Assembly (NCBI GenBank): GCA_041665505.1
Contig: JBAYIR010000005.1
Location: forward strand, 225-64,224
Length of the DNA: 64,000 nt
Source: Patescibacteria group bacterium
GTDB lineage: Bacteria > Patescibacteriota > Patescibacteriia > UBA1558 > GWA2-36-10
Direction: 5' to 3'
Positions 12,389 to 62,558 of the stretch are shown one piece after another (positions within the stretch are counted from its first letter, which is position 1; each line of letters starts with the position of its first letter). A program made the position numbers and the translations under genes. The notes under the pieces are model-generated. The model made no database searches and was not told where the DNA came from. It saw only the letters and a program-made list of their open reading frames with translations.

Positions 12389-12506
12389 TATTGTCAAATT
12401 TTTTGGATATTGCTAAAATTAAATAACTTGTGAGCGATGCTTACGAGTGTTGCTCACCTAACGGCGCACCATGTGCGCCAGGCCTCTAGCCGAGGGAGAG
12501 ATTCCT

Positions 12507-12647
12507 ATGAGAATCACCATCCATCCGACGTTGACCGCGCGAAGACGGAAGAACACCGAGCAGGCGACGCAGAAGGCCACGGCGACCAAGAAGGCCGCGA
12601 GGAAGAAGAACGCCAAGAAGGCGACGAGCAGCGAGGCGATCGTCTAG
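12507..12647 (+). CDS. Candidate small basic protein (46 aa) inside island 1
   Basis: SD GGGAGAG 6 nt upstream of ATG 12507 and ~89% GC3. The overlapping acidic frame 12437..12727 has ~50% GC3 and is probably not coding. Terminator hairpin 12676-12696 plus T-run follows. Confidence 0.35.
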   Translation: MRITIHPTLTARRRKNTEQATQKATATKKAARKKNAKKATSSEAIV

Positions 12648-12955
12648 GAGACGACTTCTCCGATGATGACGAGGGGCCCCCGGACACTACGGGGGCTCTA
12701 CTTTTTTTACTGCGATTTATTATTTAGTCTTATTTATAAATATTAGTTTGGATTGACTAGTTTTAGCCTCTTTGCTATCCTAAAATCAGCATTTCTCGCA
12801 TAGCTTGTTAGCTCGGTAAGGAGGAAGTCTCAAACAAAGAGCTCTCGAGTTTTCGGGAAATGTAGCCACAAGGCTTAACCAAGGAGGTTTTAACCGATCA
12901 TCACATGCCACTATGAGAGTGGCATTCACTCCGTCATGCATGGAGGTTTGTGGGC

Positions 12956-13480
12956 ATGAAGCCTATTCTTCGGTGGGCATGCCTCAGCGGTGTGCTGGCC
13001 ATTCTGGCTATCTTGACGCCCTGCCAGGGAGCCACCTGCCAGAATGACGAAGCGGTCATCATGACCGCGCTGAATATCGCCAGTTGCGACGGCACGAGCG
13101 CCATCGCTCTGAGCGAAGTCAAGCTGACGGCTAATCCCGCGGATGGGAACGTCGTCAAGGTCACCATCAACCACCTGATGAGCGGACAGACCGTGGCTAC
13201 TGCCGGTGATGCTATTTGGCTCTACTACGCGCCTTCCTACGACGCCCGGCAGTTCAGCGACGCTTACGCGACTACTGTCGTCCTGGACGCCAACATGATC
13301 GCTTCGCCGGCACTCTTCACCTACACGCACACGGCCCGGGGTGCCCTGATGCCCGGCGACCAGCTGGTGGTTCAGCCCACCTACAATACCTCCAATACCT
13401 CGGCCAGCTCGGCCCGTACGTGGAGCTCTGATGCCACGGGCATTGCCGACATTGACATGGGCGGTCAGCAGGCCGCCTAG
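12956..13480 (+). CDS. Secreted Ala/Thr/Ser-rich protein (high-GC codon usage) inside island 1
   Basis: GGAGG 9 nt upstream of ATG 12956, signal peptide MKPILRWACLSGVLAILAILTPCQGA, TAG stop. The 8-bp inverted repeat ATGCCACT/AGTGGCAT at 12905-12925 lies just upstream. Confidence 0.5.
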   Translation: MKPILRWACLSGVLAILAILTPCQGATCQNDEAVIMTALNIASCDGTSAIALSEVKLTANPADGNVVKVTINHLMSGQTVATAGDAIWLYYAPSYDARQFSDAYATTVVLDANMIASPALFTYTHTARGALMPGDQLVVQPTYNTSNTSASSARTWSSDATGIADIDMGGQQAA

Positions 13481-13595
13481 TTCGATCTCCCGGTTCAGAG
13501 GACATACAGATCTGTGAACACCACACCGCTTTCCAAGCGGCAACAGTTGGTTTGTATCCATCTGTAAAGTCCTTCGGGTCAAGAAATGGCCCATT

Positions 13596-13660
13596 CCCGG
13601 CAAGAAGACACTATCTGGTTTCGGCCAGAGAAGACTTCTTGCCGGGTCTTCTTTTTGTCT
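13596..13660 (+). terminator. Intrinsic terminator closing island 1
   Basis: 12-bp perfect stem CCCGGCAAGAAG / CTTCTTGCCGGG followed by TCTTCTTTTTGTCTTG. Confidence 0.7.
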
Positions 13661-13709
13661 TGATTTTTATATTTATTTGACATATAATATAAGCATAAAT
13701 TATTAATAA

Positions 13710-14102
13710 TTGCGTTTTATGGCAGAAAATAAAACTAAAATTTTGTTAATCGAAGATGAAGAAATGTTGGCCAATATGTATGAGGTCAAATTTAAAAACG
13801 AAGGTTTTGATTTAGAAAAAGCCCTTGATGGTGCCGATGGATTAGTCAAAGCCAAAGCTAATAAACCAGATTTTATATTATTAGATATCATCATGCCTAA
13901 GATGGATGGTTTTTCTGTACTCAAAGCTCTTAAAGAAAATGAATCTACCAAAGATGTGCCAGTAATGCTTTTGACCAATCTTGGTCAAGATGAGGATATT
14001 GAAAGAGGCAAAGAGCTGGGTGCAGTTGGCTATTTAGTCAAAGCCAATGTTACTCCTTCCGAAGTAGTAGATGAGGTTAAGAAAAAATTAGCTAAAAAAT
14101 AA
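13710..14102 (+). CDS. Stand-alone response-regulator receiver domain (CheY-like)
   Basis: LLIEDEE, DFILLDIIMPKMDG and a conserved Lys in LVKANV. 130 aa with no output domain. Confidence 0.85.
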   Translation: MRFMAENKTKILLIEDEEMLANMYEVKFKNEGFDLEKALDGADGLVKAKANKPDFILLDIIMPKMDGFSVLKALKENESTKDVPVMLLTNLGQDEDIERGKELGAVGYLVKANVTPSEVVDEVKKKLAKK

Positions 14103-14123
14103 TTTAAGCCAAAGTAAAATATG

Positions 14124-14165
14124 AACCCCCGCTAGAAATTTACGAAGTTCTACGGGGTTTTCAAA
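14124..14165 (+). terminator. Intrinsic terminator
   Basis: AACCCCCG...CGGGGTT hairpin followed by TTTCAAAAG. Confidence 0.6.
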
Positions 14166-14180
14166 AGTAAAATTATAATT

Positions 14181-14717
14181 ATGAAAAATAATAAAATTTC
14201 TAACGGGGTGAATGATAAATTAGAAAGAAGTCTTGTTTTGTTAAAACCAGATGCTATCAATAGGGGATTAATAGGAGAGATTTTACACCGTTTTGAAAGA
14301 ACTGGTCTGAAGTTGGTTGGATTAAAATTGGTTTGGTCTGATGAAGATACAGCTTTGAAACATTATAGCGAAGATTTGGCCAAACGCCGTGGTCAAAGAG
14401 TTAGAGATATTATGGTGGAGATGATTACTTCTGGACCAATAGTAGCTATTGCCATTGAAGGTGTGGAGGCAGTAGAGATAGTACGTAAAATGGTTGGTGC
14501 TACTGAACCAAAGAGTGCTGCTCCTGGCACTATCAGAGGCGACTATGCCCATCTTTCATTTAAGCACGCTGATGATAATCAGATGGCAGTGTTCAATCTG
14601 ATTCATGCTTCATCTAGTGTTCCAGAAGCTAAAGAAGAAATTTCTTATTGGTTTCATGACTTTGAGCTTTATTCTCATCAGCCAGATTATACCAAGCATA
14701 CTTTATTAGAAAAATAA
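14181..14717 (+). CDS. ndk: Nucleoside diphosphate kinase
   Basis: GTIRGDYA and NLIHASSS motifs. The catalytic His lies in NLIHAS. Confidence 0.9.
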   Translation: MKNNKISNGVNDKLERSLVLLKPDAINRGLIGEILHRFERTGLKLVGLKLVWSDEDTALKHYSEDLAKRRGQRVRDIMVEMITSGPIVAIAIEGVEAVEIVRKMVGATEPKSAAPGTIRGDYAHLSFKHADDNQMAVFNLIHASSSVPEAKEEISYWFHDFELYSHQPDYTKHTLLEK

Positions 14718-14774
14718 TCTCTCGACACTTCGACTGTGCAGAGCACTGGCTAAGCTCGAGATAAAAAAATAAAA

Positions 14775-14800
14775 AGAGCTAAGTTTAGCTCTTTTAACTT
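14775..14800 (+). terminator. Intrinsic terminator after ndk
   Basis: AGAGCTaagtttAGCTCT followed by TTTAACTT. Confidence 0.55.
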
Positions 14801-15149
14801 GATAGTTTGCTAGGCTATTTTTTTAGTGTTATAATCAAGTTGTAGCCTCTTCTTTTACAAAATATGTAACTCTACAACAATGTTACATTGGAACTCTATA
14901 TTAGCTGGGACTTTGGTCTACAGTTTGCGAGTGCCACCCTTTTCAATAGGGGTTATACATATTAAAAAGAATGCTATGTAGTCAATTTTATCAGTAACCA
15001 TATCAAACATGCTGACATGTGACTAGCAAAAAGGTGTTTTATCAGTACTTCACTATACAAACGCCTTTTTGTTTTGTGTATATTTTTTTAAATAATTTAT
15101 ATTAATTTGTGTGAAATAAAAAATCGTCCGAGGCGATTTTTTAGAGCAA

Positions 15150-15180
15150 TCAAAAAACCTGCCTAAGAGCAGGTGGATAA
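15150..15180 (-). terminator. Intrinsic terminator for rpmB (reverse strand)
   Basis: ACCTGCctaagaGCAGGT hairpin, followed on the reverse strand by a T-run. Confidence 0.6.
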
Positions 15181-15183
15181 AAA

Positions 15184-15375
15184 TTATTTTGAAGTTTGGT
15201 TTTTCTTCAATTTATTTAGAGTCTTCAAACAAGAAGTACAAACAATCATTCTAGAACCACCAATTTTTTTTGATTGCAAGTTTATTTTCATAGTTCTTTT
15301 ACTAGCAATATTGGAGTGACTGCGTTGATTGCCAGTTACTTTTCCTCTGTTGCAGATATCACATGCTTTAGCCAT
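15184..15375 (-). CDS. rpmB: 50S ribosomal protein L28
   Basis: 63 aa reading MAKACDICNRGKVTGNQRSHSN... Confidence 0.85.
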   Translation of the reverse strand: MAKACDICNRGKVTGNQRSHSNIASKRTMKINLQSKKIGGSRMIVCTSCLKTLNKLKKNQTSK

Positions 15376-15460
15376 ATATTTTGAATTTCTAATTAATTAA
15401 GCTATAATTATTTATACAACGTAGAATAATTTATCATAAAAGTAACTTTTTGTCAAAGCT

Positions 15461-16090
15461 ATGTTAATATCTTCATTATTTTCAGATCCAACATTATTTT
15501 TAATTACAGTCTTATCTATCATATACGCGCTGACTATTCATGAGTTTTCGCATGCTTTAGTGGCTACTTATTTGGGAGATAACACCGCCAAATACAATGG
15601 GCGCCTTAATCTCAACCCATTATCCCATATGGAGTTTTTTGGTACTTTGATGCTACTTTTTGCTGGTTTTGGTTGGGGGAAACCAGTACCAATTAATCCT
15701 TACAATCTAAGATGGAAAAGATGGGGGAGTGCTTTGGTTGCTTTGGCTGGACCAATATCAAATTTCATTTCCGCCTTTATTTTTGTGACTGTTGTCAATA
15801 TTTTGACCAATTTTATACCAGCTGATAGTTTAGTTTTTGATTTTTTAGTGTATTTAATATTCATCAATTTTATATTAGGGATGTTTAATCTTATTCCCAT
15901 CCCTCCTTTAGATGGTTCTAAAGTACTTTTTGCCGCTTTACCAGCTCGTATGGATGAGTTTAAACGTCAATTTAGCGTTAATGGGCCTTGGATATTATTG
16001 GGTCTTATTTTTCTAGACAATTTTGCTGGGGTAAATATTTTTGGTCGAATCTTTGAATTTTTTATAAATTTGATATATTTATTGTTTTAA
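15461..16090 (+). CDS. Membrane zinc metalloprotease, peptidase M50 (site-2 protease-like) family
   Basis: HEFSHAL (HExxH) motif embedded in a TM helix. Polytopic membrane protein of 209 aa. Confidence 0.6.
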   Translation: MLISSLFSDPTLFLITVLSIIYALTIHEFSHALVATYLGDNTAKYNGRLNLNPLSHMEFFGTLMLLFAGFGWGKPVPINPYNLRWKRWGSALVALAGPISNFISAFIFVTVVNILTNFIPADSLVFDFLVYLIFINFILGMFNLIPIPPLDGSKVLFAALPARMDEFKRQFSVNGPWILLGLIFLDNFAGVNIFGRIFEFFINLIYLLF

Positions 16091-16158
16091 ACCAGCCTAG
16101 CTAGCAGCTAAAAAAGTCAATAAAATAGGGGTTTTTATAGAATATTTGTCATTTACTC

Positions 16159-16186
16159 TTGACAAATTTTTTATTTGTGCTATAGT
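16159..16186 (+). promoter_or_regulatory. Near-consensus sigma70 promoter reading into island 2
   Basis: TTGACA (16159-16164), 16-nt spacer, extended -10 TGcTATAGT (16178-16186). A TGGTGAttTCACCA palindrome sits at the predicted transcription start. Confidence 0.6.
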
Positions 16187-16332
16187 ACACAATCTGGTGA
16201 TTTCACCATCCGTACCATTGACATTACACAGCTTGAAACAGGCTGTAGCATATTCCTCCACTAGGGAGGTATCCGCGCTTCTTGATTTCGGTCAAGAGGC
16301 ATAGTTCATGGCTCAATCATGGAGGTTTTTCC

Positions 16333-16434
16333 ATGCCCAACTGCCGCGGACCCACGCATCGCCGTCTCTCGAGTTTTCACAAGGACAACATCTTCACCAC
16401 CGACCGCGTCGCGGCCGCCAGCCCCCAGGCCTGA
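16333..16434 (+). CDS. Candidate small ORF (33 aa) in island 2
   Basis: GGAGG 8 nt upstream of ATG 16333, ~85% GC3, TGA stop. The overlapping ORF-track frame 16319..16504 has lower GC3. Confidence 0.25.
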   Translation: MPNCRGPTHRRLSSFHKDNIFTTDRVAAASPQA

Positions 16435-16666
16435 CCCGGGCGCCGGCGTCGTGATCGTGCTCCGGGAGAAATCCTGGGGCGTCCATCCACTGTTGGGTAG
16501 ATAAGGAGGCATTCGTCTATGCTTTCCTGGCTTCTGCCCGACGATGACCGTGTTGTCGAAGCCCTCGTCTGGGTCAGACAGCACAGAGTGGACCGCACCG
16601 TAAAGGCCGGTGTATGGACCACGCGTCATCGTTTTCTGACACCTGAACTGACAAGGAGAAACCAAA

Positions 16667-16780
16667 GTGTTCTTCCTCCTACCCGAGTACCGCGGGAAGG
16701 TCGCCGAAGGCGACGACCCTCACGCGGAGCGACGCGGGTTCCGCAGCGTTGTGGACGCTGTATGGGCCCATGATGAGTAG
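16667..16780 (+). CDS. Candidate small ORF (37 aa) in island 2
   Basis: AAGGAGAAACC upstream of GTG 16667, ~75% GC3, TAG stop. A further candidate ATG 16519 is preceded by TAAGGAGG, but its extent is ambiguous. Confidence 0.2.
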   Translation: MFFLLPEYRGKVAEGDDPHAERRGFRSVVDAVWAHDE

Positions 16781-17366
16781 CCTATTGCTGCTCATGAGTT
16801 CAGCCCTGGTTTTTTCCTAGGGAACGTTTGGTGCTTTGCGTCGAGGCCAGACTCGGCCCCTTTCTCTGAGAGGGCGCCGCCGGCGGTACGACGGATTGCT
16901 ACACAGCTAAAGACTTGCGCATCCCTGCGTAGCGCGCGTGCCTACGCTGCACCTGTTTCCTAGCTCGGCCCTCGGGCCCCGATGTCATGCGGACGCTTCC
17001 AGCGCCCGCGCAGACTGGGGCTCGAGGGCCTCTCATCAACACGGCCGCCAGCCGGCCTCCTTCAAGTGTTCCTCGTATTTTTTGATATGAGGTTGTCCCC
17101 GCGGGACATAATTCGCAGGATGCCCGGTGTGGTTCGTGTTGTTCTTCCCCTCGGGGGGCGCCTTCGTTTGCCGACTGCTCAGTAGCAGCCGACAATTCGA
17201 ATGGCGCTTCCCGGGGGCCTATTTTTTTTATTAAAAATTTTTATAAACAGTCCAAATCCTTGACTTTAATATTTTATTATGCTATTTTATTGGGGACTTT
17301 TGTCGCGTAATAATAATTAATTTTACGGACAGAATAGTCGCATTTTTTTATTTTTATTAACAAAAT

Positions 17367-17798
17367 ATGCCAACAGTAAATCAATTATTGAAAAAACCTA
17401 GGAAAAATAAGAAAGCTAAGAGTAGTACTCCAGCTTTACATACTGTTTTAAATAGTTTGAGAAGAAAGAAAAAAGAACTTCCAGAAGGAGCTCCATTTAA
17501 ACGTGGTGTTTGTGTGAAGGTAACTACTAGCACGCCAAAGAAACCAAACTCTGCTTTGCGTAAAATTGCTAGGGTCAGACTTTCCAACGGAATGGAAGTA
17601 ACTGCTTATATTCCCGGAGAAGGACATAATCTACAAGAACACAGTATTGTGCTTATTCGTGGTGGTAGGGTCAAAGATTTACCTGGTGTCCGTTATCATA
17701 TTGTCCGTGGTGTTTATGATACTCAAGGAGTGAACGGTAGAAAACAAGGCCGATCTTTGTATGGTACTAAGAGAGAAAAAGCAGCCAAAAAAAAGTAA
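17367..17798 (+). CDS. rpsL: 30S ribosomal protein S12
   Basis: N-terminus [13 protein letters not shown]..., str operon position, conserved [17 protein letters not shown]-17-TATTTT promoter lies about 17290-17320. Confidence 0.9.
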
Positions 17799-17828
17799 AA
17801 TAATATTTCAATAAATTCAATATAAATT

Positions 17829-18293
17829 ATGAGAGGAAACAAAATTCCAAAAAGAGATATTTTACCAGATCCTAAATTTCAAAGGATAGATATTGCCAAA
17901 TTGATTAACAAAGTAATGTCTAACGGTAAAAAAACTACAGCTCAAAAAGTTGTTTATGAGGCTTTGCAATATATTTCTGAAAAAACCAAACAAGATCCTT
18001 TAGAGGTATATGATTCAGCTATTAGAAATGTATCTCCTAGTTTAGAAGTCAAAGGTAAAAGAATTGGTGGAGCCAACTACCAAGTGCCTATTGTGGTGAC
18101 TGGAGAAAGAAAACTTATTTTGGCTTATCGTTGGATTTTGGAAGCTGCTCGTGCTAAAAAAGGAGCTACTATGGCCAAAAGATTGGGTGATGAACTGATA
18201 GCCGCTTCTAATAGTGAAGGCGCTGCTATGAAAAAACGTGAAGATGTCCAACGTATGGCTGAATCAAATAAGGCCTTTGCACATTTCGCTTAA
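17829..18293 (+). CDS. rpsG: 30S ribosomal protein S7
   Basis: 154 aa between rpsL and fusA. Confidence 0.9.
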   Translation: MRGNKIPKRDILPDPKFQRIDIAKLINKVMSNGKKTTAQKVVYEALQYISEKTKQDPLEVYDSAIRNVSPSLEVKGKRIGGANYQVPIVVTGERKLILAYRWILEAARAKKGATMAKRLGDELIAASNSEGAAMKKREDVQRMAESNKAFAHFA

Positions 18294-18369
18294 ATTAACA
18301 ATTATTTAAAATAAAGGCAGACTTTGTCTGCATTTTATTTTTAAAAAATAAATTAAATAAAATAATATT

Positions 18370-20466
18370 ATGGAGCGACACCCTTTAGAAAAAGTAAGAA
18401 ATATTGGAATTATTGCGCATATTGATGCTGGTAAAACTACTGTTACCGAGCGTATTCTTTTTTATACTGGGAAAAAACATAAAATTGGCGAAGTCCATGA
18501 AGGTAAAGCCGAGATGGATTGGATGGAGCAAGAAAAAGAGCGCGGTATTACTATTACCTCAGCCGCTACAACTTGTTTTTGGGATTTACCAGATTGGTTG
18601 GGTGGAGGTAAAGCCAATATTAATATTATTGATACACCAGGTCACGTAGATTTTACTGTCGAAGTAGAAAGATCACTAAGAGTGCTTGATGGTGGCGTGA
18701 TTGTTTTTGATGGAGTAGCTGGTGTAGAACCACAATCAGAAACTGTTTGGAGACAAGCTGATAAATATCATGTGCCAAGATTGGCTTTTATAAATAAGAT
18801 GGATAGAATGGGTGCAGATTTCTATTTTGATATGGATACTATCCACGAGCGCTTGACCAAAAAAGCCTATCCTATGCAATTACCAATTGGTGCCGCTGAA
18901 ACATTTACTGGTATTATCAATGTCTTAGAGCGTGAAGCTTGGTACTATCTTGATGAAGATGGTAAACAATATGAAAAGCGTGAGGTTCCTGATGACATGA
19001 AAGATAAAGTAGAAAAATATCGAGCTGAACTGATTGAAGCAATTGTGGAAAATGATGAAACTTTGATGGAAAAATATCTTGGTGGGCAGGAGCCAGATTT
19101 AGTAGCCATCAAAAAAGTATTAAGACAAGCAGTAATTGATAATAAACTAGTACCAATTTTTTGTGGTAGTGCTTTGAAAAATAAAGGCGTCCAATTTTTA
19201 TTAGACGCAGTAGTATCTTATCTACCATCACCAATTGATGTGCCACCGATTGAAGGTAATGAACCAAGAAATGAAGAAAATATTATCCAAGTCAAGATTG
19301 GTGATAGTGAACCATTTGTTGGTTTGGCTTTTAAAGTAGCTACTGATCCTTATGTTGGCCGATTAACTTTTGTGCGTGTTTATTCAGGTACTTTAAAGGC
19401 TGGTTCTTATGTTTATAATGCTAATACAGAAAAGAAAGAAAGAATTGGTCGAATACTGCGAATGCACGCCAATGCCAGAGAAGAATTAACTGAAATTTTT
19501 AGTGGTGATATTGTGGCCGTAGTTGGTTTAAAAGACACTACCACTGGTCACACTATTTGTGATCCAGCTCGTCCAGTAGTTTTGGAAAGTATGGAATTCC
19601 CAGACCCAGTTATACACGTGGCGGTAGAACCAAAAACCAAGCAAGATCAAGAAAAAATGGGTATGGCTTTGGCCAAATTGACTGAAGAAGATCCTACCTT
19701 TACTGTCAGAAGTGATGAGGAGACAAATCAAACTATTATTGGTGGTATGGGAGAGCTTCACTTAGATATTATCGTTGATCGTATGAAACGTGAGTTTGGT
19801 GTGGAAGCTAATGTCGGTGCTCCTCAGGTAGCTTATAAAGAAACTATTACTGGTAGTGCTGAAGCTGAAGGAAAATATGTCAAGCAATCTGGTGGACGTG
19901 GTCAATATGGTCATTGTTGGTTGCGCTTGGAAGCTCAAGAGCCTGGTAAAGGATTTGAGTTTATAGAACAAATTAAAGGTGGTTCTATTCCTAAAGAGTT
20001 TATTGCGCCGATTGAAAAAGGTGTTAAAGAAACTATGAACAATGGTATTTTGGCTGGTTATCAGATTCAAGATGTCAAAGTGACTGTTTATGATGGATCA
20101 TATCATGATGTTGACTCTTCAGAAGCCGCTTTTAAAGTAGCTGGCTCTATGGCTTTTAAAGCTGCTTTTAGGCTAGCCAATCCAGTAATACTAGAACCAA
20201 TTATGAAAGTAGAAGCAGTTACTCCAGAACAATATATGGGCGATGTGATTGGTGATCTTAATTCCAAGAGAGGACAAATATCAAATATGACTGACAGAGC
20301 TGGGGCTAAGGTAATTAATGCTGAAGTGCCACTAGCTGAAATGTTTGGCTATGCTACTGCTCTTAGATCTATGACTCAAGGTAGAGCTAGTTATTCTATG
20401 GAGTTTGCTAAATATCAAGAAGTGCCTAGAAATGTCGCTGAAGAAATAATGAAAAAAAAGGCTTAA
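18370..20466 (+). CDS. fusA: Elongation factor G
   Basis: [10 protein letters not shown]1 motif and DTPGH. 698 aa. Confidence 0.95.
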
Positions 20467-20482
20467 ATTAATATTTATCTAT

Positions 20483-20513
20483 ACAGTCGCGTCTGACGCG
20501 GCTGTATTTTTTT
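20483..20513 (+). terminator. Intrinsic terminator after fusA
   Basis: ACAGTCGCGtctgaCGCGGCTGT followed by ATTTTTTTTG. Its core is nearly identical to the tuf terminator. Confidence 0.7.
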
Positions 20514-20572
20514 GTTTAAAAAAAGAAGTCGCCCGCCACTGCTGCTGCAGGGCGGGCGACGAAAGCGTCAGC

Positions 20573-20803
20573 CTATGTCGGCTGATGAAGCCTCTTTTCC
20601 AGGCTTCGGACGCGAGAACGCGTGATGCCTTTGGTCTTCAGCTGAGACCAGCTCAGAGCACGGTTCTTCAGCGCTCTTTTGATCATCATGATCATGGTAA
20701 AGAGTGTCAGTTCCGTAGGATCTTCATCCTCGAAGATCAACTGAGCCTTAGTGAGGAGCTCCTCGCTGGTCATATTAAAGTCCAGGTTCACAGCTTCGGA
20801 CAT
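20573..20803 (-). CDS. Hypothetical 76-aa protein (high-GC codon usage), island 3 cassette A
   Basis: AAAGGAG 7 nt upstream of ATG (reverse strand), TAG stop. Terminator GTCGCCCGCC...GCGGGCGAC plus T-run lies at 20527-20566 on the reverse strand. Confidence 0.45.
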   Translation of the reverse strand: MSEAVNLDFNMTSEELLTKAQLIFEDEDPTELTLFTMIMMIKRALKNRALSWSQLKTKGITRSRVRSLEKRLHQPT

Positions 20804-20858
20804 CAACTACTCCTTTTCGACTGTTACATCCTTGTGCAGGGGTGAACGAGGCAACATA

Positions 20859-20890
20859 ATAACATATATTTTAAGTTTAGTCAATCCAGC
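20859..20890 (-). repeat. Direct repeat copy 1 (27-nt exact match with copy 2); encodes reverse-strand promoter TTGACT-17-TATTAT
   Basis: Forward-strand ATAACATATATTTTAAGTTTAGTCAAT(C)CAG. Sits 43 nt upstream of the cassette A start. Confidence 0.7.
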
Positions 20891-20971
20891 TCTTAGTAAG
20901 GAGCTAGATTAATATTCAAAGGGGGCGCTTCTGGCGAAGCGCCCCCTCGGTGTCGGCTGACCGATGTCGGA

Positions 20972-21418
20972 TCAGACGAAGAAGTGTATGATCTTGATGT
21001 CCAGACCGTGATGATAATAGTATTCGCCGTTCATGTCGATGCCGACAACCGAGCCATCGGCAATCTTGTCGGGCAGATCCAACTGCATGGTCTTCATCAG
21101 GATTTCATGAGCCAGTTCGCTATGGATGCTGAACATCTTGATCTTCTGGAGAATCTCGAGATGACGATCGTACTCGCTCTGGCAGGTGCCAGCACAGTGG
21201 CCACGGCACTGCTCCGGCGGACAGAGCTCCTGGTGTTCGCGTTCCAGCTCCTTGAGGTCCTGCACGATTCCGTAGAACAAGCCCCATGCTCGTTTGACGT
21301 CTTTACTCGCTTTGATGCCGAGCAGCCGTCGTGGGTCGAGGATCTCCATCTTGGGCCAAGTGACCTTATCCAGATCGATCCCTTGGGCTCGATCGTTGAG
21401 TTCGCTGAGCAGGTTCAT
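20972..21418 (-). CDS. Hypothetical 148-aa Cys-containing protein (CPPEQCRGHCAGTC), island 3 cassette B
   Basis: AGGAGG 6 nt upstream of ATG (reverse strand), TGA stop. Terminator AGGGGGCGCTTCgccaGAAGCGCCCCCT lies at 20920-20950. The 5'UTR carries the 10-bp inverted repeat TAACGGTGTA / TACACCGTTA. Confidence 0.45.
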   Translation of the reverse strand: MNLLSELNDRAQGIDLDKVTWPKMEILDPRRLLGIKASKDVKRAWGLFYGIVQDLKELEREHQELCPPEQCRGHCAGTCQSEYDRHLEILQKIKMFSIHSELAHEILMKTMQLDLPDKIADGSVVGIDMNGEYYYHHGLDIKIIHFFV

Positions 21419-21593
21419 CTTACTCCTCCTGGATTCCCTTGCTAGGGAATGAAATAACGGTGTAACACAAATACCACATTAGTTAGTACACCGTTAGGCT
21501 AACTAATGTTTTTCAAAACACAGAATTAAAGAATATTATTATTCTTCAAGTCTATATTTTAAAATTTATAAACAACATTTCAGATTTATGTTT

Positions 21594-21625
21594 ATAACAT
21601 ATATTTTAAGTTTAGTCAATTCAGT
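21594..21625 (-). repeat. Direct repeat copy 2; reverse-strand promoter TTGACT-17-TATAAA for cassette B
   Basis: ATAACATATATTTTAAGTTTAGTCAAT(T)CAG. 31 of 32 nt identical to copy 1. Confidence 0.7.
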
Positions 21626-22074
21626 TGCGTCTGACCTGATTGGCCTAAAAATAAAACTCCAGATAAAAATCTGAAGTTTTATTTTATATCCCTCCTAAAT
21701 TTATCACTAGTTGCTAAACTTGGGAGGGGGCCGGTCTTTGTCAGACATTGATCGGCCTTGTGTGTGGGGTATGTGGGCAGATGTAGGCGGAGTAGCGGAG
21801 TTGATGGATAAACCCTTTTTTCCAAGGCATAAATCTGGAGCAGAGCTACCTAGCTTTTGGCCGTAGCCAGCTGAGGTCAGATAAATATACTGAAATTATT
21901 GAGTATAGACCCAATAGAATCTAGCTTTTTATCTGTTCTCTTTACTCCAAATTTATACCTTGGAAGGATGGATATTTAAAGAACTTTTTATGTTAATGTG
22001 GTAGTATAGCATATATTTATATTTTTGTCAAGCATATAAGCTCTGCTATTTGATGTTTTGATATAGCAATTTTC

Positions 22075-22102: not shown

Positions 22103-22137
22103 ATATGGGGACTTAAGTAGCTTTTAATCATAAAAAT

Positions 22138-53149: not shown

Positions 53150-53164
53150 TATTTTAAAATAAAA

Positions 53165-53192: not shown

Positions 53193-53202
53193 TTTAGAGA
53201 AA

Positions 53203-53592
53203 TTAGGCAGTCATTATGAGTTTAACTTCTTTTTTGTTGATAATCTTTTTATTATCCAAAACTTTTATGAGGGTGTTTACTTTTTTGTCTTTTTTATCTA
53301 CTGTGCCTAGCATATCTATTTTAAGGTCGCTTAGTTTATCATCTAGATAATCTTTGGTCACCATGGTAGATTCAATTTTATCAAAACGTTGATCAATCTT
53401 ATCAAAACGCTCTTCTGTATGGTTAGCAAAATCATTGATAGCACTAGCTAATTTATCAATGTTAGTAGTATTTTGGCTTACTTTCACGTCTAAGTCTTGC
53501 AATTTTTTGTCTAAAACCTGCACTGTTTTGTCTAAACCTTGCACGGCTTGGAGTATTTTTTGATTTGATACGTTGCTTTTCTTCTTAAGCAT
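53203..53592 (-). CDS. Hypothetical coiled-coil protein
   Basis: 129 aa with heptad-like K/D/L-rich repeats. Confidence 0.45.
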   Translation of the reverse strand: MLKKKSNVSNQKILQAVQGLDKTVQVLDKKLQDLDVKVSQNTTNIDKLASAINDFANHTEERFDKIDQRFDKIESTMVTKDYLDDKLSDLKIDMLGTVDKKDKKVNTLIKVLDNKKIINKKEVKLIMTA

Positions 53593-53653
53593 AGTTTTAT
53601 TAGTTAATTATTTAGGTCATTGTATTATACAATGGTGATTTTTAGCTGTCAAT

Positions 53654-54877: not shown

Positions 54878-54966
54878 TTGTTTAATTGATTTATTTACTA
54901 AATACTGGTATAATTTTATAGTATTTACAGGGCTAAAGCAAGTTTTTAATAGAGAAATATTTTAAG

Positions 54967-56079: not shown

Positions 56080-56091
56080 ATTTATAAGGGG

Positions 56092-57171: not shown

Positions 57172-58238
57172 ATGATAAAGCCAAAAAAATTTGCTACGTC
57201 TTACCCAATTTTGATCTAAATATAGATACACATTATTTTTATTTATATGATTTTATAAATGAAGTAGCCAAAGATTTAGAGCTTACACTGCTCATTGAAA
57301 AAAGCAATTCGGATATTAGTTTTTTTAAAAATGTTCATAAAATTTATCAACAAAAATTTTCATGGAAGCCACTGCGGGTAATAGAAAATTTTTTATTACT
57401 ATTTTGGATTAGACTTGCTGGTGTTAAAAATTATTATATTCACTATTCATACATTTCAGCTATCAATGCAACTGTGATAGCTCGCTTATCAGGAGCCAGG
57501 ACTTTTTATTGGAGCTGTGGCATGATGTGGCTTTTTGCTAGAGATAGAGCTTTGGAATTTATTTTAAAGTCAATTAATTATCTGGTAACTGGTGTAGAGA
57601 CCTTAAAAGCTGGATATATAGAGCATTACAATATTACCCAAGACCGAATAAAGATAATGCCTAATTGGGTTGATTTGGCTAGATTTACTAACATTGATAG
57701 CACTAAGGTTTTGGAAAAATATAAATTAAATAGTAAAGGCTTATATATTCTTTTTGTCCATCGTCTAGCCAAGCGCAAAGGTGCTCACTATATAGCTCAG
57801 CTGGCTAAAGATAATCCAGAATATAAATTTTTAATAGCAGGTGATGGGCCGTATAAAGAAGATTTAGAAAAAGAAATAAAAGATTTAAATAATGTTATAA
57901 TACTTGGCAAAGTACCCAATAAAGATATTCCCAGTTTAATGAAGATTTCCAAATTATTTTTTATGCCCTCAGAAGAAGAAGGTTTTCCCAGAGTACTTTT
58001 GGAAGCTATGGCAGCTGGTCTTCCTTATGTAGCATATGATATTGGTGGGGTCAGAGAAATAAGTAGTCCAGAGCAACAAAAATATATTGTTAGTGGAGTC
58101 AGTAATATGGATAGAGCCATTAAAAGTATTTTGAGTAGTGAGGAAGAATACAATAAATTGAAACAAGCAAATTTAGAGCAGGTCAAACAGTTTGATATCA
58201 AAATAGTTAAAGATAAATTTAGCAGATTATTTTCTTAA
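57168..58238 (+). CDS. Glycosyltransferase family 4
   Basis: EEGFPRVLLEAMAAGLPYVAYDIGGVREI. Start at ATG 57168 (MNDKAKK...). Confidence 0.8.
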   Translation: MNDKAKKICYVLPNFDLNIDTHYFYLYDFINEVAKDLELTLLIEKSNSDISFFKNVHKIYQQKFSWKPLRVIENFLLLFWIRLAGVKNYYIHYSYISAINATVIARLSGARTFYWSCGMMWLFARDRALEFILKSINYLVTGVETLKAGYIEHYNITQDRIKIMPNWVDLARFTNIDSTKVLEKYKLNSKGLYILFVHRLAKRKGAHYIAQLAKDNPEYKFLIAGDGPYKEDLEKEIKDLNNVIILGKVPNKDIPSLMKISKLFFMPSEEEGFPRVLLEAMAAGLPYVAYDIGGVREISSPEQQKYIVSGVSNMDRAIKSILSSEEEYNKLKQANLEQVKQFDIKIVKDKFSRLFS

Positions 58239-58239
58239 T

Positions 58240-59364
58240 ATGGGGGAGAAAAAAATAAAAATTGCGATTGTCATAAATAATATGATGATTGGTGGGGCAC
58301 AGAGATTGATAGTTGATCAGTTTAGATATTTTGATAGAAATAAATTTGATTATTCATTATTGATATTATCCAAATTTTCAGGGCAAGCTGATTTTATGGA
58401 CGAATTACCAAAGGATTTAAAGATTTATCAATTTGATTTTAAAAATTTTAGCAGTTTTAAAGAGTGGTTTAAATTATTTAAAATTTTACAAAAAATAAGA
58501 CCACAGGTAGTAAGATCCAGTCTATTTATGTCCAATACTATTGTCAGAGTTTTTAAACCATTTTTGGGCTATCAGGTGATAATTACAGAAAATAATACGC
58601 ATTACAATAAAAGTAAGTTTAAAATTTATTTGGACAAGCTACTAGCAATTTGGACATATAAAATAACTCCAGATTCTCAGACAGTGACTGATTTTACTAT
58701 CAAGCAGGAAAAAATAAATCAAAATAAATTTTTGACTATTTACAACGGTGTGGATATTGAGGAAATAAAAAATTATCTAAGTCTTAGTCAGGAAAATAAT
58801 TTAAAAAAAGAATTGGGTATAGCTCAAAACGGCAAGATAGTTTTAAATATCGCTAGACTAGTCAGACAAAAAAATCATAAATTACTAATAGAGTCTTTTG
58901 CTAAATTTTCTAAGCTACAGCCAGATTATAATTTGATAATAGTCGGTGATGGGACATTAATGCCAGATCTTAAAAAACAAGCCAAAGATTTGGGAGTGGA
59001 GAACAAAGTATTTTTCCCAGGCGCTAGCAAAGATTTATATCAGTATTATGCTATCAGCGATTTGTTTGTTATTAGCTCTACTCAAGAAGGATTTTGCCTG
59101 ACTGCAGTAATGGCTTTGGCTTTTGGTATACCAGTAGTAGCTACCAAGGTAGCGGGACTGGTAGAATATATAAAAGATGATTATAATGGATTGCTAGCAA
59201 CTTATAATTCAGATGAGCTGTCCCTTAAAATGTCCAAACTAGCTAGTTTGGAAATTGGGCAGAGAGAAATTTATAAAAAAAATTGCCAAGCTACAGCTGA
59301 AAACTTTGATATCAAAAAACACGCCAAAGCTTTTGAAGATTTATTTTTAGCTAGTTTAAATTAA
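58240..59364 (+). CDS. Glycosyltransferase family 4
   Basis: QEGFCLTAVMALAFGIPVVATKVAGLVEYI. Confidence 0.8.
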   Translation: MGEKKIKIAIVINNMMIGGAQRLIVDQFRYFDRNKFDYSLLILSKFSGQADFMDELPKDLKIYQFDFKNFSSFKEWFKLFKILQKIRPQVVRSSLFMSNTIVRVFKPFLGYQVIITENNTHYNKSKFKIYLDKLLAIWTYKITPDSQTVTDFTIKQEKINQNKFLTIYNGVDIEEIKNYLSLSQENNLKKELGIAQNGKIVLNIARLVRQKNHKLLIESFAKFSKLQPDYNLIIVGDGTLMPDLKKQAKDLGVENKVFFPGASKDLYQYYAISDLFVISSTQEGFCLTAVMALAFGIPVVATKVAGLVEYIKDDYNGLLATYNSDELSLKMSKLASLEIGQREIYKKNCQATAENFDIKKHAKAFEDLFLASLN

Positions 59365-59369
59365 AAAAT

Positions 59370-60023
59370 ATGTCCAAAGATTATAATATACAAGTAGATG
59401 CTGACAAGCACTATAAGAATAAAAAATATGATGACTTAGGAAGATTTATTTCTTATTATCATCAAATTGACGAAGCCAGAAAAATGTCTGTTGATAGCAT
59501 ATTGGAGATTGGTATTGGAGGCGGAGTGGTGGCTAATTATCTAAAGAGTATTGGCAAAGAGGTAAAAACTTGTGACTTTGACCAAAAAACAGGAGCAGAT
59601 ATTATCTCAGATATCAGAGATATCAATTCACCAGATAATTCTTTTGATTTGGTGATGGCTTGTCAGATACTAGAACATATTCCTTTTGAAGATTTTGCCA
59701 AAGGTTTGTCAGAAATTAGAAGAGTCAGTAAAAAATACGCCATTATATCTTTGCCTTATCGCTCTTCTTATTTTGAAATGATTATAAAATTTCCTTTTAT
59801 CCGTACACTATTTAAAAAAGATTTCTTTGATTTTAGCATCAAGCGAGCTATCAGATTTCCGGGTTTTGACCAATCAGGCCAGCATTATTGGGAGATAGAT
59901 CAAAAGCAATACAAGCTCAAAGACATCCGTACCAAGCTGGAAGAAAAATTTAAGATTTTAAATGAGTTTAGTCCGATTTTAAATAAATATCATTACTTTT
60001 TTATATTAGAAGTTAAGAAATAA
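59370..60023 (+). CDS. Class I SAM-dependent methyltransferase
   Basis: Motif I ILEIGIGGG, and motif post-I DLVMACQILEH. Confidence 0.75.
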   Translation: MSKDYNIQVDADKHYKNKKYDDLGRFISYYHQIDEARKMSVDSILEIGIGGGVVANYLKSIGKEVKTCDFDQKTGADIISDIRDINSPDNSFDLVMACQILEHIPFEDFAKGLSEIRRVSKKYAIISLPYRSSYFEMIIKFPFIRTLFKKDFFDFSIKRAIRFPGFDQSGQHYWEIDQKQYKLKDIRTKLEEKFKILNEFSPILNKYHYFFILEVKK

Positions 60024-60024
60024 G

Positions 60025-60774
60025 ATGTCAGAAAAAAAATTAGACAATCAATTTGTTAGAGAAGCTTACAATCAATCAATGGGAAATTATCCAGCTGGCT
60101 ATCATCACTGGCGTTGGTTTCGGGAAGCAATATCACGCTATCATTACAAACAGAGTAAGCGTAGTTTTTTGTATGCTCTAAAAGGTTCCCATTTTGATAA
60201 AGCTTTGGAAATAGGCGGTGGCGATGGTGAGTGGACCAAAATACTTTTGTCTTATGTTGGGCAGATAGATTTTTATGATATCTCTGAAGAAATGATGAAA
60301 CAAGCCAAAAATCGTTTGGCTGATAAACAAAATATAAATTTCTTTTTGGGAGATTTTTTGGAAAATGATTTGTCTGATTATAGCTATGATTTTATTTTAT
60401 CTTTTCGTTCTTTTGAGTATTTTGATGATAAAGAAAAGTTTTTTCAAGAAACAAAGAGATTACTCAAAAGTGGAGGGAAAATGATTATGGTTAGCAAAAG
60501 TCCACATTATGATTGGAAAAAATATTATCAAAGTAAAAAACTTCATTCAGGCATTTTGCCTATACAAGAGATAATAAAAATGTTTGCCAGTCATGATTTT
60601 GAAATAGAGTTGGTCAAACCAGCTATTGTTGGCAAAAAGTTGAGCTGGCCACTGATGCGGTTTTTGTTTGATATTTTTCACCGTAGTAATTATTTATTCA
60701 AATTTAATATCTTACCACTTTTTATTTTACAATATATTTCGGAGAGTTTTATTATTAAGGTAGTCAAAAAATAA
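60025..60774 (+). CDS. Class I SAM-dependent methyltransferase
   Basis: ALEIGGGDGEWT motif I. Confidence 0.75.
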   Translation: MSEKKLDNQFVREAYNQSMGNYPAGYHHWRWFREAISRYHYKQSKRSFLYALKGSHFDKALEIGGGDGEWTKILLSYVGQIDFYDISEEMMKQAKNRLADKQNINFFLGDFLENDLSDYSYDFILSFRSFEYFDDKEKFFQETKRLLKSGGKMIMVSKSPHYDWKKYYQSKKLHSGILPIQEIIKMFASHDFEIELVKPAIVGKKLSWPLMRFLFDIFHRSNYLFKFNILPLFILQYISESFIIKVVKK

Positions 60775-60776
60775 TT

Positions 60777-61385
60777 ATGCTCCTAGAATTATATGGACTG
60801 CCGGGTAGCGGTAAGTCAACACTAGCCAAACGCTTGGCAGAGATAGACAGCTCAAAATTTGTAGTAGTCAATTTTTCCAATAAATTGTCTAGATATTTTT
60901 ATTTATTGCTTTATATAATAAATCATCCTGTAAATTTTTATCAATGGATAATGTTTTTATTACAAAATAAAAAATTGTTTATTTATAAATTGCATTTGTT
61001 ATTTTTATCTCTGGCCAAGATGCAAAAAGCCAGCTTTATAAAAAATAAGCAGGCCTTAGTAGATGAAGGATTATTACAAAGAGTTTTGACTATTTCGGAT
61101 AATTTGGTAGATGATAAGTCATTGGATAAATTATTAAAATATTTAGTCAGTCCAGTCCATTTGATTATTATGGAGGGTGGTGTTTTTCATCGTTTTATAA
61201 CAGACGAGCAGAAAGATAATAGCCCTAGATTAAAATTGGGGCAAGATTATTTTGTAGCCTGGCAAAATATGCTAGAGAAAAATAATAATATTATAAAAAG
61301 ATATTTAGCCGATAAAAAAAATTTAAAGGTAGCTATATATAATAAAGAATCTATTAAGGCAGAGGATATTGTCTCTGGCATTTAA
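60777..61385 (+). CDS. P-loop NTPase/kinase-like protein
   Basis: Walker A LYGLPGSGKSTLAKRL at the N-terminus; 202 aa. Confidence 0.55.
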   Translation: MLLELYGLPGSGKSTLAKRLAEIDSSKFVVVNFSNKLSRYFYLLLYIINHPVNFYQWIMFLLQNKKLFIYKLHLLFLSLAKMQKASFIKNKQALVDEGLLQRVLTISDNLVDDKSLDKLLKYLVSPVHLIIMEGGVFHRFITDEQKDNSPRLKLGQDYFVAWQNMLEKNNNIIKRYLADKKNLKVAIYNKESIKAEDIVSGI

Positions 61386-61452
61386 TTTTTGGGTAAATAA
61401 AGAAGCGCCTCACGGGTGGACTGATGTCCCGCCGCGAGGCGCCCAAGACGAT

Positions 61453-61878
61453 TCATACAACATCGCCGCTGTCTTCATATCGTACGCCATCGCTATCGAG
61501 GCGTACCTCAATGCTGGTGTCAAACACGCTGCAGAGGGTTTGGCACAACTCTACGACTTCTTGGCGATGCATTTCGCCGTTGAATTCAAAGACCCAGTGG
61601 TCTTCGGTAGCACTTCGCCGGCTGTTCTCGAACCAGATGACACCGATGAGCAGGTGCATGTGTTGTCCCAGCAGCAGACGCAGCAGGCCCCGGCGAGGCT
61701 TCTTGGTGGGGTTCCATTTGAGAATCCCCAGTGAATCTTCGGGTGACAGGGGAGCTTTGAGTTTACTCCCGCCACATGATGCCAACTCCCAGCCTTGGTT
61801 CTTGAGCCATCGCCCAACTCGGATCGAGATGTGGACATCTGACACCTTAACTTCAGGAGTGTTCACGTCTAACCTCAC
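61453..61878 (-). CDS. Candidate 141-aa protein in island 4 (GTG start, weak SD)
   Basis: Reverse frame with plausible amino-acid composition, GC3-biased codons and a TGA stop. Other overlapping frames look like high-GC artefacts. Confidence 0.3.
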   Translation of the reverse strand: MRLDVNTPEVKVSDVHISIRVGRWLKNQGWELASCGGSKLKAPLSPEDSLGILKWNPTKKPRRGLLRLLLGQHMHLLIGVIWFENSRRSATEDHWVFEFNGEMHRQEVVELCQTLCSVFDTSIEVRLDSDGVRYEDSGDVV

Positions 61879-61934
61879 TTGCTAGGGGTGTACATTCATT
61901 GCCGCACTACTTTTGTAGTAGTCTTGACCTTGTG

Positions 61935-62489
61935 TCAGGCCAGACCGCGTCGCAGCTTGGCTGCGAAGTCCTTGGCGTAGTCTTCCTTGACCTGGAAGTC
62001 GGCCTGAGCTTCCGGCAGCAGACAGCGGAACTGTCCGATCACGTGCTGCTCCAAGTAGCTCAGCGACTCTTCCACGGTCTTGCCCATCGCCGCCCCACTG
62101 GCGAAGGTCTTGACGATCCAGAAGGTCTCGCCACCCTCCAAGAGGTGGGCATCGTGGACGATGTCGCCTTCGATGGTCAGGATGTCGTCGGGATTGGTGT
62201 CCTTCTGAGAATCCCAGGCAGTCCGGACAATGCGAGCAATGTCGCCCTCGCACACCTGCTGCGAACGCAGGAAAGTGATGGTGGCTTCTTCGCCGCCGGG
62301 CAGATGAATAACGCCATGGAAGTACAGCGCGACCCGGATCAGCTTCAGACTGGCCTCAGGGTAGTTCCGGGTCAGTTTCACGGAGATGTCCCAGATGCGG
62401 TCGATGTGGCACATGTTGTGCATCACGTCTTTGGCTTCGTAGTAGGGAGCTACGAAGTTGGAGACAGAGGAGAGCTTGAGTTTATCCAT
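61935..62489 (-). CDS. Hypothetical 184-aa protein in island 4
   Basis: ATG 62489 with AAAGG 9 nt upstream, TGA stop, GC3-biased. Contains MHNMCHIDRIW...YFHGVIH, His-rich and possibly metal-binding. The ORF-track start at 62558 runs into the promoter. Confidence 0.5.
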   Translation of the reverse strand: MDKLKLSSVSNFVAPYYEAKDVMHNMCHIDRIWDISVKLTRNYPEASLKLIRVALYFHGVIHLPGGEEATITFLRSQQVCEGDIARIVRTAWDSQKDTNPDDILTIEGDIVHDAHLLEGGETFWIVKTFASGAAMGKTVEESLSYLEQHVIGQFRCLLPEAQADFQVKEDYAKDFAAKLRRGLA

Positions 62490-62529
62490 CGTGTGGCCTT
62501 TCGGTTGGGGTACATAGGGCGGACTATAT

Positions 62530-62558
62530 ATAATAGCATATATGTTAGTTTTTGTCAA
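62530..62558 (-). promoter_or_regulatory. Consensus sigma70 promoter (reverse strand) driving the island 4 genes
   Basis: Reverse strand reads TTGACA, 17-nt spacer AAAACTAACATATATGC, then TATTAT. Lies in AT-rich DNA flanking the island. Confidence 0.65.

Follow-up and report, generated by a model that had tools for sequence, protein, structure and literature searches.

Four GC-rich intergenic islands in an AT-rich Patescibacteria genome consist of six predicted autonomous cassettes with their own coding style

A 64,000-nt stretch of the genome of a Patescibacteria group bacterium (assembly GCA_041665505.1, contig JBAYIR010000005.1, positions 225 to 64,224), here called the window, carried four GC-rich islands. 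The nearest named relatives of the source genome are Parcubacteria and Komeilibacteria, and its genes bear the NCBI locus tags WCV71_*. In 300-nt windows, from which the GC statistics were computed, the background had a GC content of 0.335 ± 0.042 with a maximum of 0.443. The mean GC contents of islands 1, 2, 3 and 4 were 0.550, 0.593, 0.516 and 0.559, respectively (z of the mean 4.2–6.4), with peaks of 57–63%, and outside the islands no 300-nt window exceeded 0.48. A separate 500-nt profile showed four jumps from ~33% to 50–61% GC, at 12427–13665, 16195–17225, 20527–21500 and 61392–62535. A preliminary description of this DNA had reported switches from ~33% to ~60% GC at four intergenic sites. 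The four islands were confirmed, each between host genes, but ~60% proved to be a peak value, with means of 52–59%.

The islands consist of six autonomous transcription units, each with a predicted promoter and terminator. Their features are given below in coordinates of the window (ORF, open reading frame; SD, Shine–Dalgarno; UTR, untranslated region; aa, amino acids; L-numbers denote loci from relatives or other assemblies used in the comparison).

Island 1: gap between a ComEC-type lactamase gene and a response regulator gene (Lact–RR gap)
12391–12419 (+): promoter of cassette 1a, TTGTCA-17-TAAAAT, TG-extended, conserved in L002
12427–12709 (+): transcript of cassette 1a, with a 5′ hairpin, SD site GAGGGAGAG, ORF, and terminator at 12673–12699 followed by a T-run
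12753–12781 (+): promoter of cassette 1b, TTGACT-17-TATCCT, TG-extended, within an 84-nt spacer of 26% GC
12790–13662 (+): cassette 1b, with a 166-nt 5′UTR, ORF 12956–13480, a 182-nt 3′UTR and terminator 13627–13654
Island 2: gap between an M50 peptidase gene and rpsL (M50–rpsL gap)
16159–16186 (+): promoter of cassette 2, TTGACA-16-TATAGT, 11 of 12 consensus matches, TG-extended
16195–16780 (+): 5′ half of cassette 2, a 5′-terminal hairpin and then three SD-led small ORFs
16333–16434 (+): ORF A, 33 aa
From 16519 (+): ORF B, first ~33 aa conserved
16667–16780 (+): ORF C, 37 aa, GTG start, in-frame 3-nt indel in relatives
16781–17232 (+): 3′ half of cassette 2, a 450-nt hairpin-dense tail of 61% GC, with terminator 17140–17218 and a T-run
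Island 3: gap between fusA and tuf
20517–20884 (−): cassette 3a, promoter 20884–20856 (TTGACT-17-TATTAT), SD site AAAGGAG, terminator hairpin 20528–20560 and a T-run
20907–21619 (−): cassette 3b, promoter 21619–21591, SD site AGGAGGAG, ORF 20972–21418, terminator 20921–20946
Island 4: gap between a 202-aa ORF and a Glyphos_transf gene, inside a glycosyltransferase/teichoic-type cluster
61935–62558 (−): first gene of cassette 4, promoter 62558–62530 (TTGACA-17-TATTAT, 11 of 12 matches), ORF 61935–62489
61394–61934 (−): distal part of cassette 4, on the same transcript, with a candidate ORF, terminator hairpin 61405–61442 and a T-run

A pattern scan predicted TG-extended sigma-70-type promoters, based on consensus matches, at 12391 (+), 12753 (+), 16159 (+), 20884 (−) and 62558 (−). 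Since the rpsL promoter is TG-extended in the same way, they are of host type. A 31-mer at 20859–20889 had a copy at 21594–21624, and the promoters of 3a and 3b were identical at 30 of 31 positions. Plus-strand terminators were found by scanning at 12673, 13627 and 17206. Those on the minus strand (20517–20560, 20907–20946 and 61394–61442) were read from the sequence, since their loops or tails break the scan rule. AT-rich promoter spacers (26% GC), 84 nt long in island 1 and 57 nt in island 3, each split two units, and the UTRs of the islands had 44–72% GC. The preliminary description had pictured each island as a self-contained promoter–SD–ORF–terminator cassette, placed behind a near-consensus promoter of the host type and ending in a GC-rich hairpin and a T-run. 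This anatomy was upheld, with the four islands resolved into six units.

The island ORFs differed from host genes in coding style. Their GC content at third codon positions (GC3) was 0.66–0.79 compared with 0.18–0.28 in ten host genes, with the pattern GC1>GC2<GC3; it was thus strongly raised, if somewhat lower than the 75–90% initially claimed. The flanking core genes held a GC3 of 0.18–0.28 right to the stop codon. As first described, the island ORFs ended only in TGA or TAG, and the stops of the host genes (n = 52) were TAA in 42, TAG in nine and TGA in one. The SD sites described as good were strong in seven of nine island ORFs (duplex energies of −8 to −12 kcal/mol), and only one of 52 host genes had one (mean −0.5 kcal/mol). 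Core genes of relatives spanning 33% to 58% GC were likewise without SD sites. The GC-rich ones among the Patescibacteria relatives were considered as donors and rejected on this ground. Hairpins stood at the predicted 5′ ends of cassettes 1a and 2, with counterparts in L013, L014 and L101.

The islands recurred at the same junctions in at least nine independent assemblies, with sequence differences of 0–18% (independent sources: SRR28219341, SRR22387796, SRR22216446, SRR28219346/47, SRR6484324, JGI 3300037810 and ERZ27247837). Identity to the window over island 2 was 82% in L002 and L006, 89% in L003 and 92% in L004. Other sibling copies were L099 (island 3), L100 (1b), and L009, L010 and L011 (island 4). 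As to presence or absence in siblings, proposed early on as a check, the islands stood at the same junctions in siblings, and some of the gaps were empty or different in relatives. A copy of the window itself was present in ENA contig k141_517979. The window and this copy (L001) differed at five single bases (17534, 27126, 27135, 27144 and 27367) and were otherwise identical over 20.4 kb.

Cassette 3b encoded a 148-aa protein (stop TGA) with the Cys motif CPPEQCRGHCAGTC. Compared with L099, its synonymous divergence (dS) was 0.69 and its non-synonymous divergence (dN) 0.22 (omega, dN/dS, 0.32), with two in-frame indels and an invariant motif CPPEQCRGHCAGTCQ; divergence inside 3b was mosaic. 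The family had six members among 1.84 billion representative proteins searched with HMMER, all on short metagenome contigs. GC3 of 3b was 0.72 in the window, 0.78 in L099, 0.79 in L013 and 0.87 in L164, while neighbouring genes had 0.18–0.27. In L164, the p124 neighbour was 72% identical to that of the window (GC3 0.27) and was followed by a 3b homologue of only 28% identity. An AlphaFold2 model of 3b was a helical hairpin (pLDDT, predicted local distance difference test, 67), and Foldseek searches of this model against the PDB gave no match at E < 0.001, nor any with an E below 0.1.

The 3a ORF (20573–20803; 76 aa, stop TAG, GC3 0.66) had a dS of 0.55 and an omega of 0.21 relative to L099, and a homologue of 47% identity in L013. 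L013, whose elongation factor G (EF-G) was 89% identical, carried the 3b/3a pair in the fusA–tuf gap with GC3 values of 0.79 and 0.56. The L164 ORF in the 3a position (GC3 0.75) matched weakly (32% over 38 aa, E 0.047), so that its homology rests mainly on position. The L164 ORFs in the 3b and 3a positions each had their own AT-rich promoter, SD site and terminator.

The 3b leader was ~170 nt long, and its distal 120 nt had 23% GC. On the minus strand, the region 21419–21625 that contains the leader was nearly identical in L099 despite the ORF dS of 0.69, was partly conserved in L013 and held several hairpins. The leader is a candidate cis-regulatory RNA, with no match in Rfam. Between the 3b promoter and a 124-aa ORF (21700–21860) lay a G-rich stretch of moderate GC content (gggagggggccgg...gtgtgtggggtatgtgggcagatgtaggcggagtagcggag).

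The first gene of island 4 encoded a 184-aa protein (stop TGA, GC3 0.79) and lacked an SD site. From its profile matches and conserved residues, the protein is an ordinary HD-domain protein of the YedJ/YpgQ/Lin1889 type, a putative phosphohydrolase. Profiles matched PDB entries 3b57 (7e-13), 3gw7, which is YedJ (6e-9), and 5dqv (5.5e-8). NCBIfam PRK10119 scored 7.7e-8, under the family cutoff, and Pfam PF01966 was recorded on two homologues. Eleven homologues with the H..HD..D signature were collected, and H24, H58, H112-D113 and HDAHLLEGG were invariant in 11 sequences. The protein resembles YedJ, YpgQ and Lin1889 (3gw7, 5dqv and 3b57) in this signature and by profile, but unlike those chains it is shorter, restricted to Patescibacteria and part of a family of 11 sequences. 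The island proteins had at first been thought to belong to no family that could be named from sequence. This held for most of them, the exception being this hydrolase; searches of the island proteins with Pfam, NCBIfam, PADLOC and PHROGs returned nothing but the weak HD match.

All relatives of the HD protein were of Patescibacteria type. In the Komeilibacteria contigs L093–L097 the slot of the HD gene and its opposed orientation were unchanged. Its GC content was 42% and 39% in L093 and L097, against backgrounds of 35% and 28%, and by lineage it ranged over 58%, 42%, 39% and 36%. The distal segment of island 4 was missing from L093 and L097. In the window this segment contained a candidate 141-aa ORF (61453–61878, minus strand) with a GTG start and a weak SD site, whose product was not in the protein collection. 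GC2 was low both in this frame and in an antisense plus-strand frame of 121 aa (61369–61734). Automatic gene calls in island 4 came in three versions among its copies (window, L008, L009 and L010), and one of them put a 220-aa ORF on the other strand from the HD gene. As a diverged sibling for island 4, L010 was rejected: its 49 differences all lay beyond 63556, and with an identical island it gave no information.

Cassette 1a (GC 0.59–0.61 throughout its UTRs and ORF) encoded a basic 46-aa peptide rich in Lys, Arg and Ala (ORF 12507–12647, stop TAG; NCBI call WCV71_03355). Its orthologue in L002 had 40 aa and differed by an in-frame 18-nt indel. The differences between the two copies comprised 21 SW and 20 WS changes (S, strong, G or C; W, weak, A or T), and both sequences had equal GC. 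Cassette 1b encoded a 174-aa protein (stop TAG, GC3 0.77) with a signal-like hydrophobic N-terminal segment, and its 5′UTR held two additional SD-like motifs. It was 81% identical to its sole relative, P0015 on L100 (dS 0.17, omega 0.49). As L100 lies nearer to L002 than the window does, L002 was rejected as an outgroup for polarising 1b, except on the L100 branch (W>S 4, S>W 1). The AlphaFold2 model of 1b was unusable (pLDDT 31).

A 5′-truncated remnant of 1b was present in L002. The last 140 nt of the 1b 3′UTR including the terminator (13526–13665) were 100% identical to L002, where flanking genes were 84–88% identical; L002 keeps this end although the upstream ORF is truncated. The segment, just upstream of the response-regulator promoter, is a candidate 3′UTR-derived small RNA or regulatory element.

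Island 2 differed in content between its two halves. Its promoter block was kept at the same site in L002, L003, L013 and L014. The SD sites, start codons and mostly the frames of ORFs A–C were preserved in L002 and L003, with a pN/pS ratio of ~1 for ORF A and 0.3–0.65 for ORFs B and C. Their translation is plausible but unproven. The tail contained no conserved ORF and was the most conserved part of the island (two to four variable sites per 50 nt at 16850–17050). The z-score of its minimum free energy (MFE) was −7.8 against dinucleotide shuffles, and in L004 the stems were preserved and the loops altered. Covariation was weak among the three to four sequences compared: compensatory changes affected eight of 187 predicted pairs in the 5′ part and one of 134 in the 3′ part. 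Most of the 134 pairs predicted in the tail did not vary, or varied in one partner alone. With L002 as the outgroup, S>W and W>S substitutions in island 2 were 10 and 9 on the window branch and 28 and 18 on the L003 branch. These counts place the equilibrium GC content at ~0.5–0.57, not 0.33.

As judged from an omega below 0.5, in-frame indels, codon periodicity, and conserved families or motifs, 1a, 1b, 3a, 3b and the HD gene are protein genes. The omega values of 0.21–0.49 show that purifying selection acts on the coding parts of the units, though in relaxed form. The dS of 0.55–0.69 for 3a and 3b lay within the range of core genes against the L002 lineage (0.25–0.74; L099 and L002 stem from one sequencing series), which is consistent with co-divergence with their neighbours. 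In a two-state decay toward a GC3 of 0.22, today's value of 0.75 was unreachable after a dS of 0.55–0.69, even from an ancestral GC3 of 1.0. The units have, by these comparisons, been inherited vertically in the clade and probably often lost or remodelled, and their GC-rich, SD-led, TAG/TGA style has been kept far from the genome composition over a long divergence. On the same sequence evidence, the islands are old resident accessory loci of one Patescibacteria clade (Parcubacteria/Komeilibacteria-like).

The contents of the same gaps varied across relatives. The M50–rpsL gap was 91–155 nt long and AT-rich in L101, L102, L020, L022 and L111, 582 nt long in L013 and L103, and 1.2–2.2 kb long and GC-rich in the window, L002, L003, L014, L015, L107 and L108. 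L107, a locus on an 847-kb contig, repeated this pattern, its peaks reaching 72% GC. The island-2 promoter block was shared by the window, L013 and L014 though the bodies were unalignable, which suggests that the locus is old, that its body evolves fast and that it has been lost repeatedly. The Lact–RR gap measured 81–137 nt in L016, L017 and L112, and held other tiny units of promoter, SD site, small ORF and terminator in L101, L003, L014, L015 and L102. Other GC-rich minus-strand genes filled the fusA–tuf gap in L018, L021 and L022. In an all-against-all tblastx comparison of 81 GC islands, most were singletons.

We infer that the style is held by selection acting on the transcript, an explanation that we favour and to which we give a probability of about 0.5. 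The core mRNAs of the host are AT-rich and SD-less, and the cassette RNAs would be short, monocistronic and strongly folded, with a hairpin that caps the 5′ end, a body rich in GC and a strong terminator. Messages that are long-lived or translated only under certain conditions would then form a class of their own. Selection on the RNA is favoured because composition tracks functional elements (bodies and UTRs are GC-rich, embedded promoters AT-rich), because of the 5′-terminal hairpins of several units, the strong terminators and a folding energy per nt about twice that of host mRNAs, and because, where mRNAs otherwise lack SD sites, ribosomes would depend on one to start on a message so strongly folded.

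Stabilisers of Gram-positive mRNAs offer a comparison; these include the STAB-SD of cry3A (GAAAGGAGG) and the 5′-hairpin leader of aprE. The cassettes resemble them in their 5′-terminal stem-loops, in the SD-like motifs without a start codon in the 1b leader and in the GAAAGGAG motifs of relatives' cassettes. Unlike in STAB-SD hosts, the core genes here use no SD sites, and a stabilising role of the cassettes is putative. A tentative extension, which we regard as rather doubtful, is that two styles stand side by side, an AT-rich, SD-less, TAA-ending core and a GC-rich, SD-dependent, TAG/TGA-ending monocistronic class, held clade-wide by selection. Such an arrangement could provide nuclease-resistant, long-lived or conditionally translated messages, e.g. 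for dormancy, stress or host contact. More remotely, the cassettes might be built for expression in a GC-rich, SD-using partner cell.

Several observations weigh against selection on the transcript. The whole-transcript MFE z-scores (−3.9 to −7.8 for islands 1–3, +0.5 to −2.3 for host genes) speak for structure but are inflated by the terminators and by bodies rich in GC being combined with AT-rich leaders. Measured against synonymous-codon shuffles, folding exceeded expectation in just two island ORFs, 1b (z −3.2) and 3a (z −2.9); in 3b, HD, 4b and 1a it did not, and two host genes had similar scores. This outcome argues that the ORF bodies hold no specific selected structure beyond their composition. 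The 3b leader has 23% GC though it lies within the predicted transcript, and the HD gene is GC-rich yet has no SD site. The polarised substitution counts are small, and islands 3 and 4 have few informative siblings. The presence or absence of islands in close relatives (empty M50–rpsL gap in L101 and L102) could mean gain instead of loss. Folding of whole islands on both strands was also tried; it gave similar energies and was uninformative.

An alternative that we consider unlikely is that a GC-rich, SD-using mobile gene pool of Patescibacteria (unsampled plasmids, phages or transformation fragments) has been repeatedly swapped into hot spots. It would account for the differing and sometimes empty contents of the same three gaps among close relatives, for the singletons among the 81 GC islands and the near-orphan genes, and for SD sites and TAG/TGA stops that appear foreign; the ComEC competence gene also adjoins island 1. 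The architecture is moron-like as well. Morons, a term associated with work by Hendrix, Juhala and others in 2000, are said to be autonomous promoter–ORF–terminator units between genes that are adjacent in related lambdoid or other phages. The cassettes share with them a sigma-70-type promoter and an intrinsic terminator of their own (here predicted), a deviant composition, the lack of a mobility gene and a position between genes directly adjacent in relatives (M50–rpsL and Lact–RR gaps). They differ in being chromosomal, among ribosomal, translation and envelope genes, and in being old and syntenic with their deviant composition maintained.

The search for such a pool was negative. Megablast of 12300–21700 against plasmid and phage records gave no match, and IMG/VR viral contigs scanned with profiles of 3b, HD and 1b contained no relative. 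PHROGs gave no significant match except the weak HD one, and the neighbours are rpsL, fusA, tuf, M50 and glycosyltransferase genes, not a prophage. No integrase or transposase was detected with Pfam, NCBIfam, PADLOC or PHROGs, in agreement with the preliminary description, and no tRNA or transfer-messenger RNA (tmRNA) was found in a search for these. As to integrons, there was no integrase and no shared inverted-repeat or attC-like element, and each unit had its own promoter. A repeat search of 12300–21700 returned the duplicated 31-nt promoter and nothing else; template/variable pairs, target-site duplications, att-like repeats and attC-like elements were all absent. A reverse transcriptase domain, as in diversity-generating retroelements, was not found, nor was any repeat of island sequence in 12300–21700. 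The mobile pool is further opposed by the dS of 3b and 3a, which matches that of neighbouring core genes, by the exact synteny of the HD gene and the 3b/3a pair at deep divergence, by promoters and leaders conserved along with the site, and by the SD-less core genes of GC-rich relatives.

GC-biased gene conversion at recombination hot spots of a transformable lineage, as in the mouse Fxy case, would drive W>S fixation and faster protein evolution through heteroduplex repair that occurs again and again; we think it improbable. Its attraction lies in the very high GC3 combined with fast evolution (28% identity of 3b beside 72% of p124), the mosaic divergence in 3b, the raised GC of UTRs as well as ORFs, and the variation of HD gene GC by lineage. 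The boundaries of the islands are, however, sharp and fall at functional elements, with promoter spacers of 26% GC surviving within the tracts, and the flanking core genes still have a GC3 of 0.18–0.28 up to their stops. The polarised counts of island 2 are balanced, without a W>S excess. A gene-conversion effect of such size would far exceed that reported for bacteria.

It is still less probable that the islands are structured non-coding RNA (ncRNA) genes in which ORFs arise by chance in GC-rich sequence. GC-rich intergenic regions (GC-IGRs) mark structured ncRNAs in AT-rich genomes, as used in the GC-IGR/DIMPL approach (PMC8723152, PMC6429828, PMC11109978). The islands are likewise long GC-rich intergenic segments, and the island-2 tail, the 1b 3′UTR and several relatives' islands look like folded RNAs. 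The tail in particular has no conserved ORF, a z of −7.8 and stems that are kept where the loops vary, and some pairs close to it show compensatory changes. Gene callers disagree within the islands, and ORF A has a pN/pS of ~1. At L107 7776–8750, which reaches 72% GC in 100-nt bins, the only ORF of at least 80 aa was an 82-aa minus-strand one at the edge. Unlike GC-IGR ncRNAs, most units are protein-coding (GC3 0.66–0.79, SD sites), and the constraint on 1a, 1b, 3a, 3b and HD set out above is that of proteins. Rfam 15 had no match in the islands, whether searched at gathering thresholds or with E-values up to 5.

Capture from a high-GC donor, e.g. an actinobacterial host, was put forward in the preliminary description; as a recent event, from outside the Candidate Phyla Radiation (CPR) and before amelioration, it is now largely refuted and very unlikely. 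In its favour, the composition jump is abrupt, many high-GC bacteria typically show SD sites and TAG/TGA stops, and some close relatives are missing an island. The codon choice (CTG, ATC, GGC) also looks typical of high-GC bacteria. The islands resemble small horizontally acquired genomic islets in odd composition, placement at core-gene hot spots, orphan content and presence/absence. They differ in having no donor, integrase, tRNA, repeats or amelioration, and in orthologues that are syntenic across genera. Among 5.8 billion and 1.84 billion proteins, no relatives occurred outside Patescibacteria or metagenome contigs, and homologues were confined to Patescibacteria-type contigs; 1b and 3b had one close relative each among the 5.8 billion. 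Against this origin stand also the syntenic orthologues in deeply diverged relatives, a GC3 that is unchanged after a dS of ~0.7 and at saturation, and the balanced substitutions (10:9, 28:18 and 21:20), which indicate a stationary GC content.

An assembly chimera or an engineered insertion, both raised in the same description, has only the sharp junctions and a textbook cassette design in its favour and is refuted by the recurrence of the junctions at the same sites in at least nine independent assemblies from other samples with natural divergence, and by the lack of vector or plasmid similarity.

Compositional islands are usually read as recent transfer. Here they are conserved, syntenic and stationary, and they coincide with a switch of initiation signals. 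If selection on the transcript is the true cause, two classes of message in a minimal genome would be kept apart by a regulatory layer made up of base composition and SD use. In the literature searched, no account was found of two compositional and translational styles that coexist stably in one small genome. Gene callers trained on the AT-rich bulk mis-annotate such loci, which detectors of horizontal gene transfer would mark as foreign. Among the fast-evolving small proteins of the cassettes, 1b has a signal-like N-terminus and 3b a Cys motif. Proteins of this kind are candidates for host-interaction functions, which are unknown for most Patescibacteria.

Further features were observed at these loci in relatives. 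L018 (12660–12830), L021 (3800–3920) and L022 (9720–9900) shared a conserved long hairpin (cctcatctgaagccactaga...tctagtggattcggatgagg), located between their differing GC-rich post-fusA genes and the downstream region. The fusA–tuf gap of L013 contained a 175-aa ORF (5883–6410; 49% GC) with cytidine/deoxycytidylate-deaminase-like motifs (HGEQNAI ... CGQC) and its own promoter, SD site and terminator. The Lact–RR gap of L015 (2950–3650) held three tandem small units, with promoters ending in '..tgttatactaaaa' or '..tgctatactaaaa' and the terminator 'gaccccttctc..gagaaggggtt'; the array resembles a small-RNA gene in repeated copies. In many Falkowbacteria and other Patescibacteria (L047, L051, L052, L054, L059, L061–L063, L071, L077, L089 and L091), the EF-G match extended over ~2.9–3.1 kb and not 2.1 kb, which suggests an insertion (an intein or an extra domain) in fusA of those relatives.

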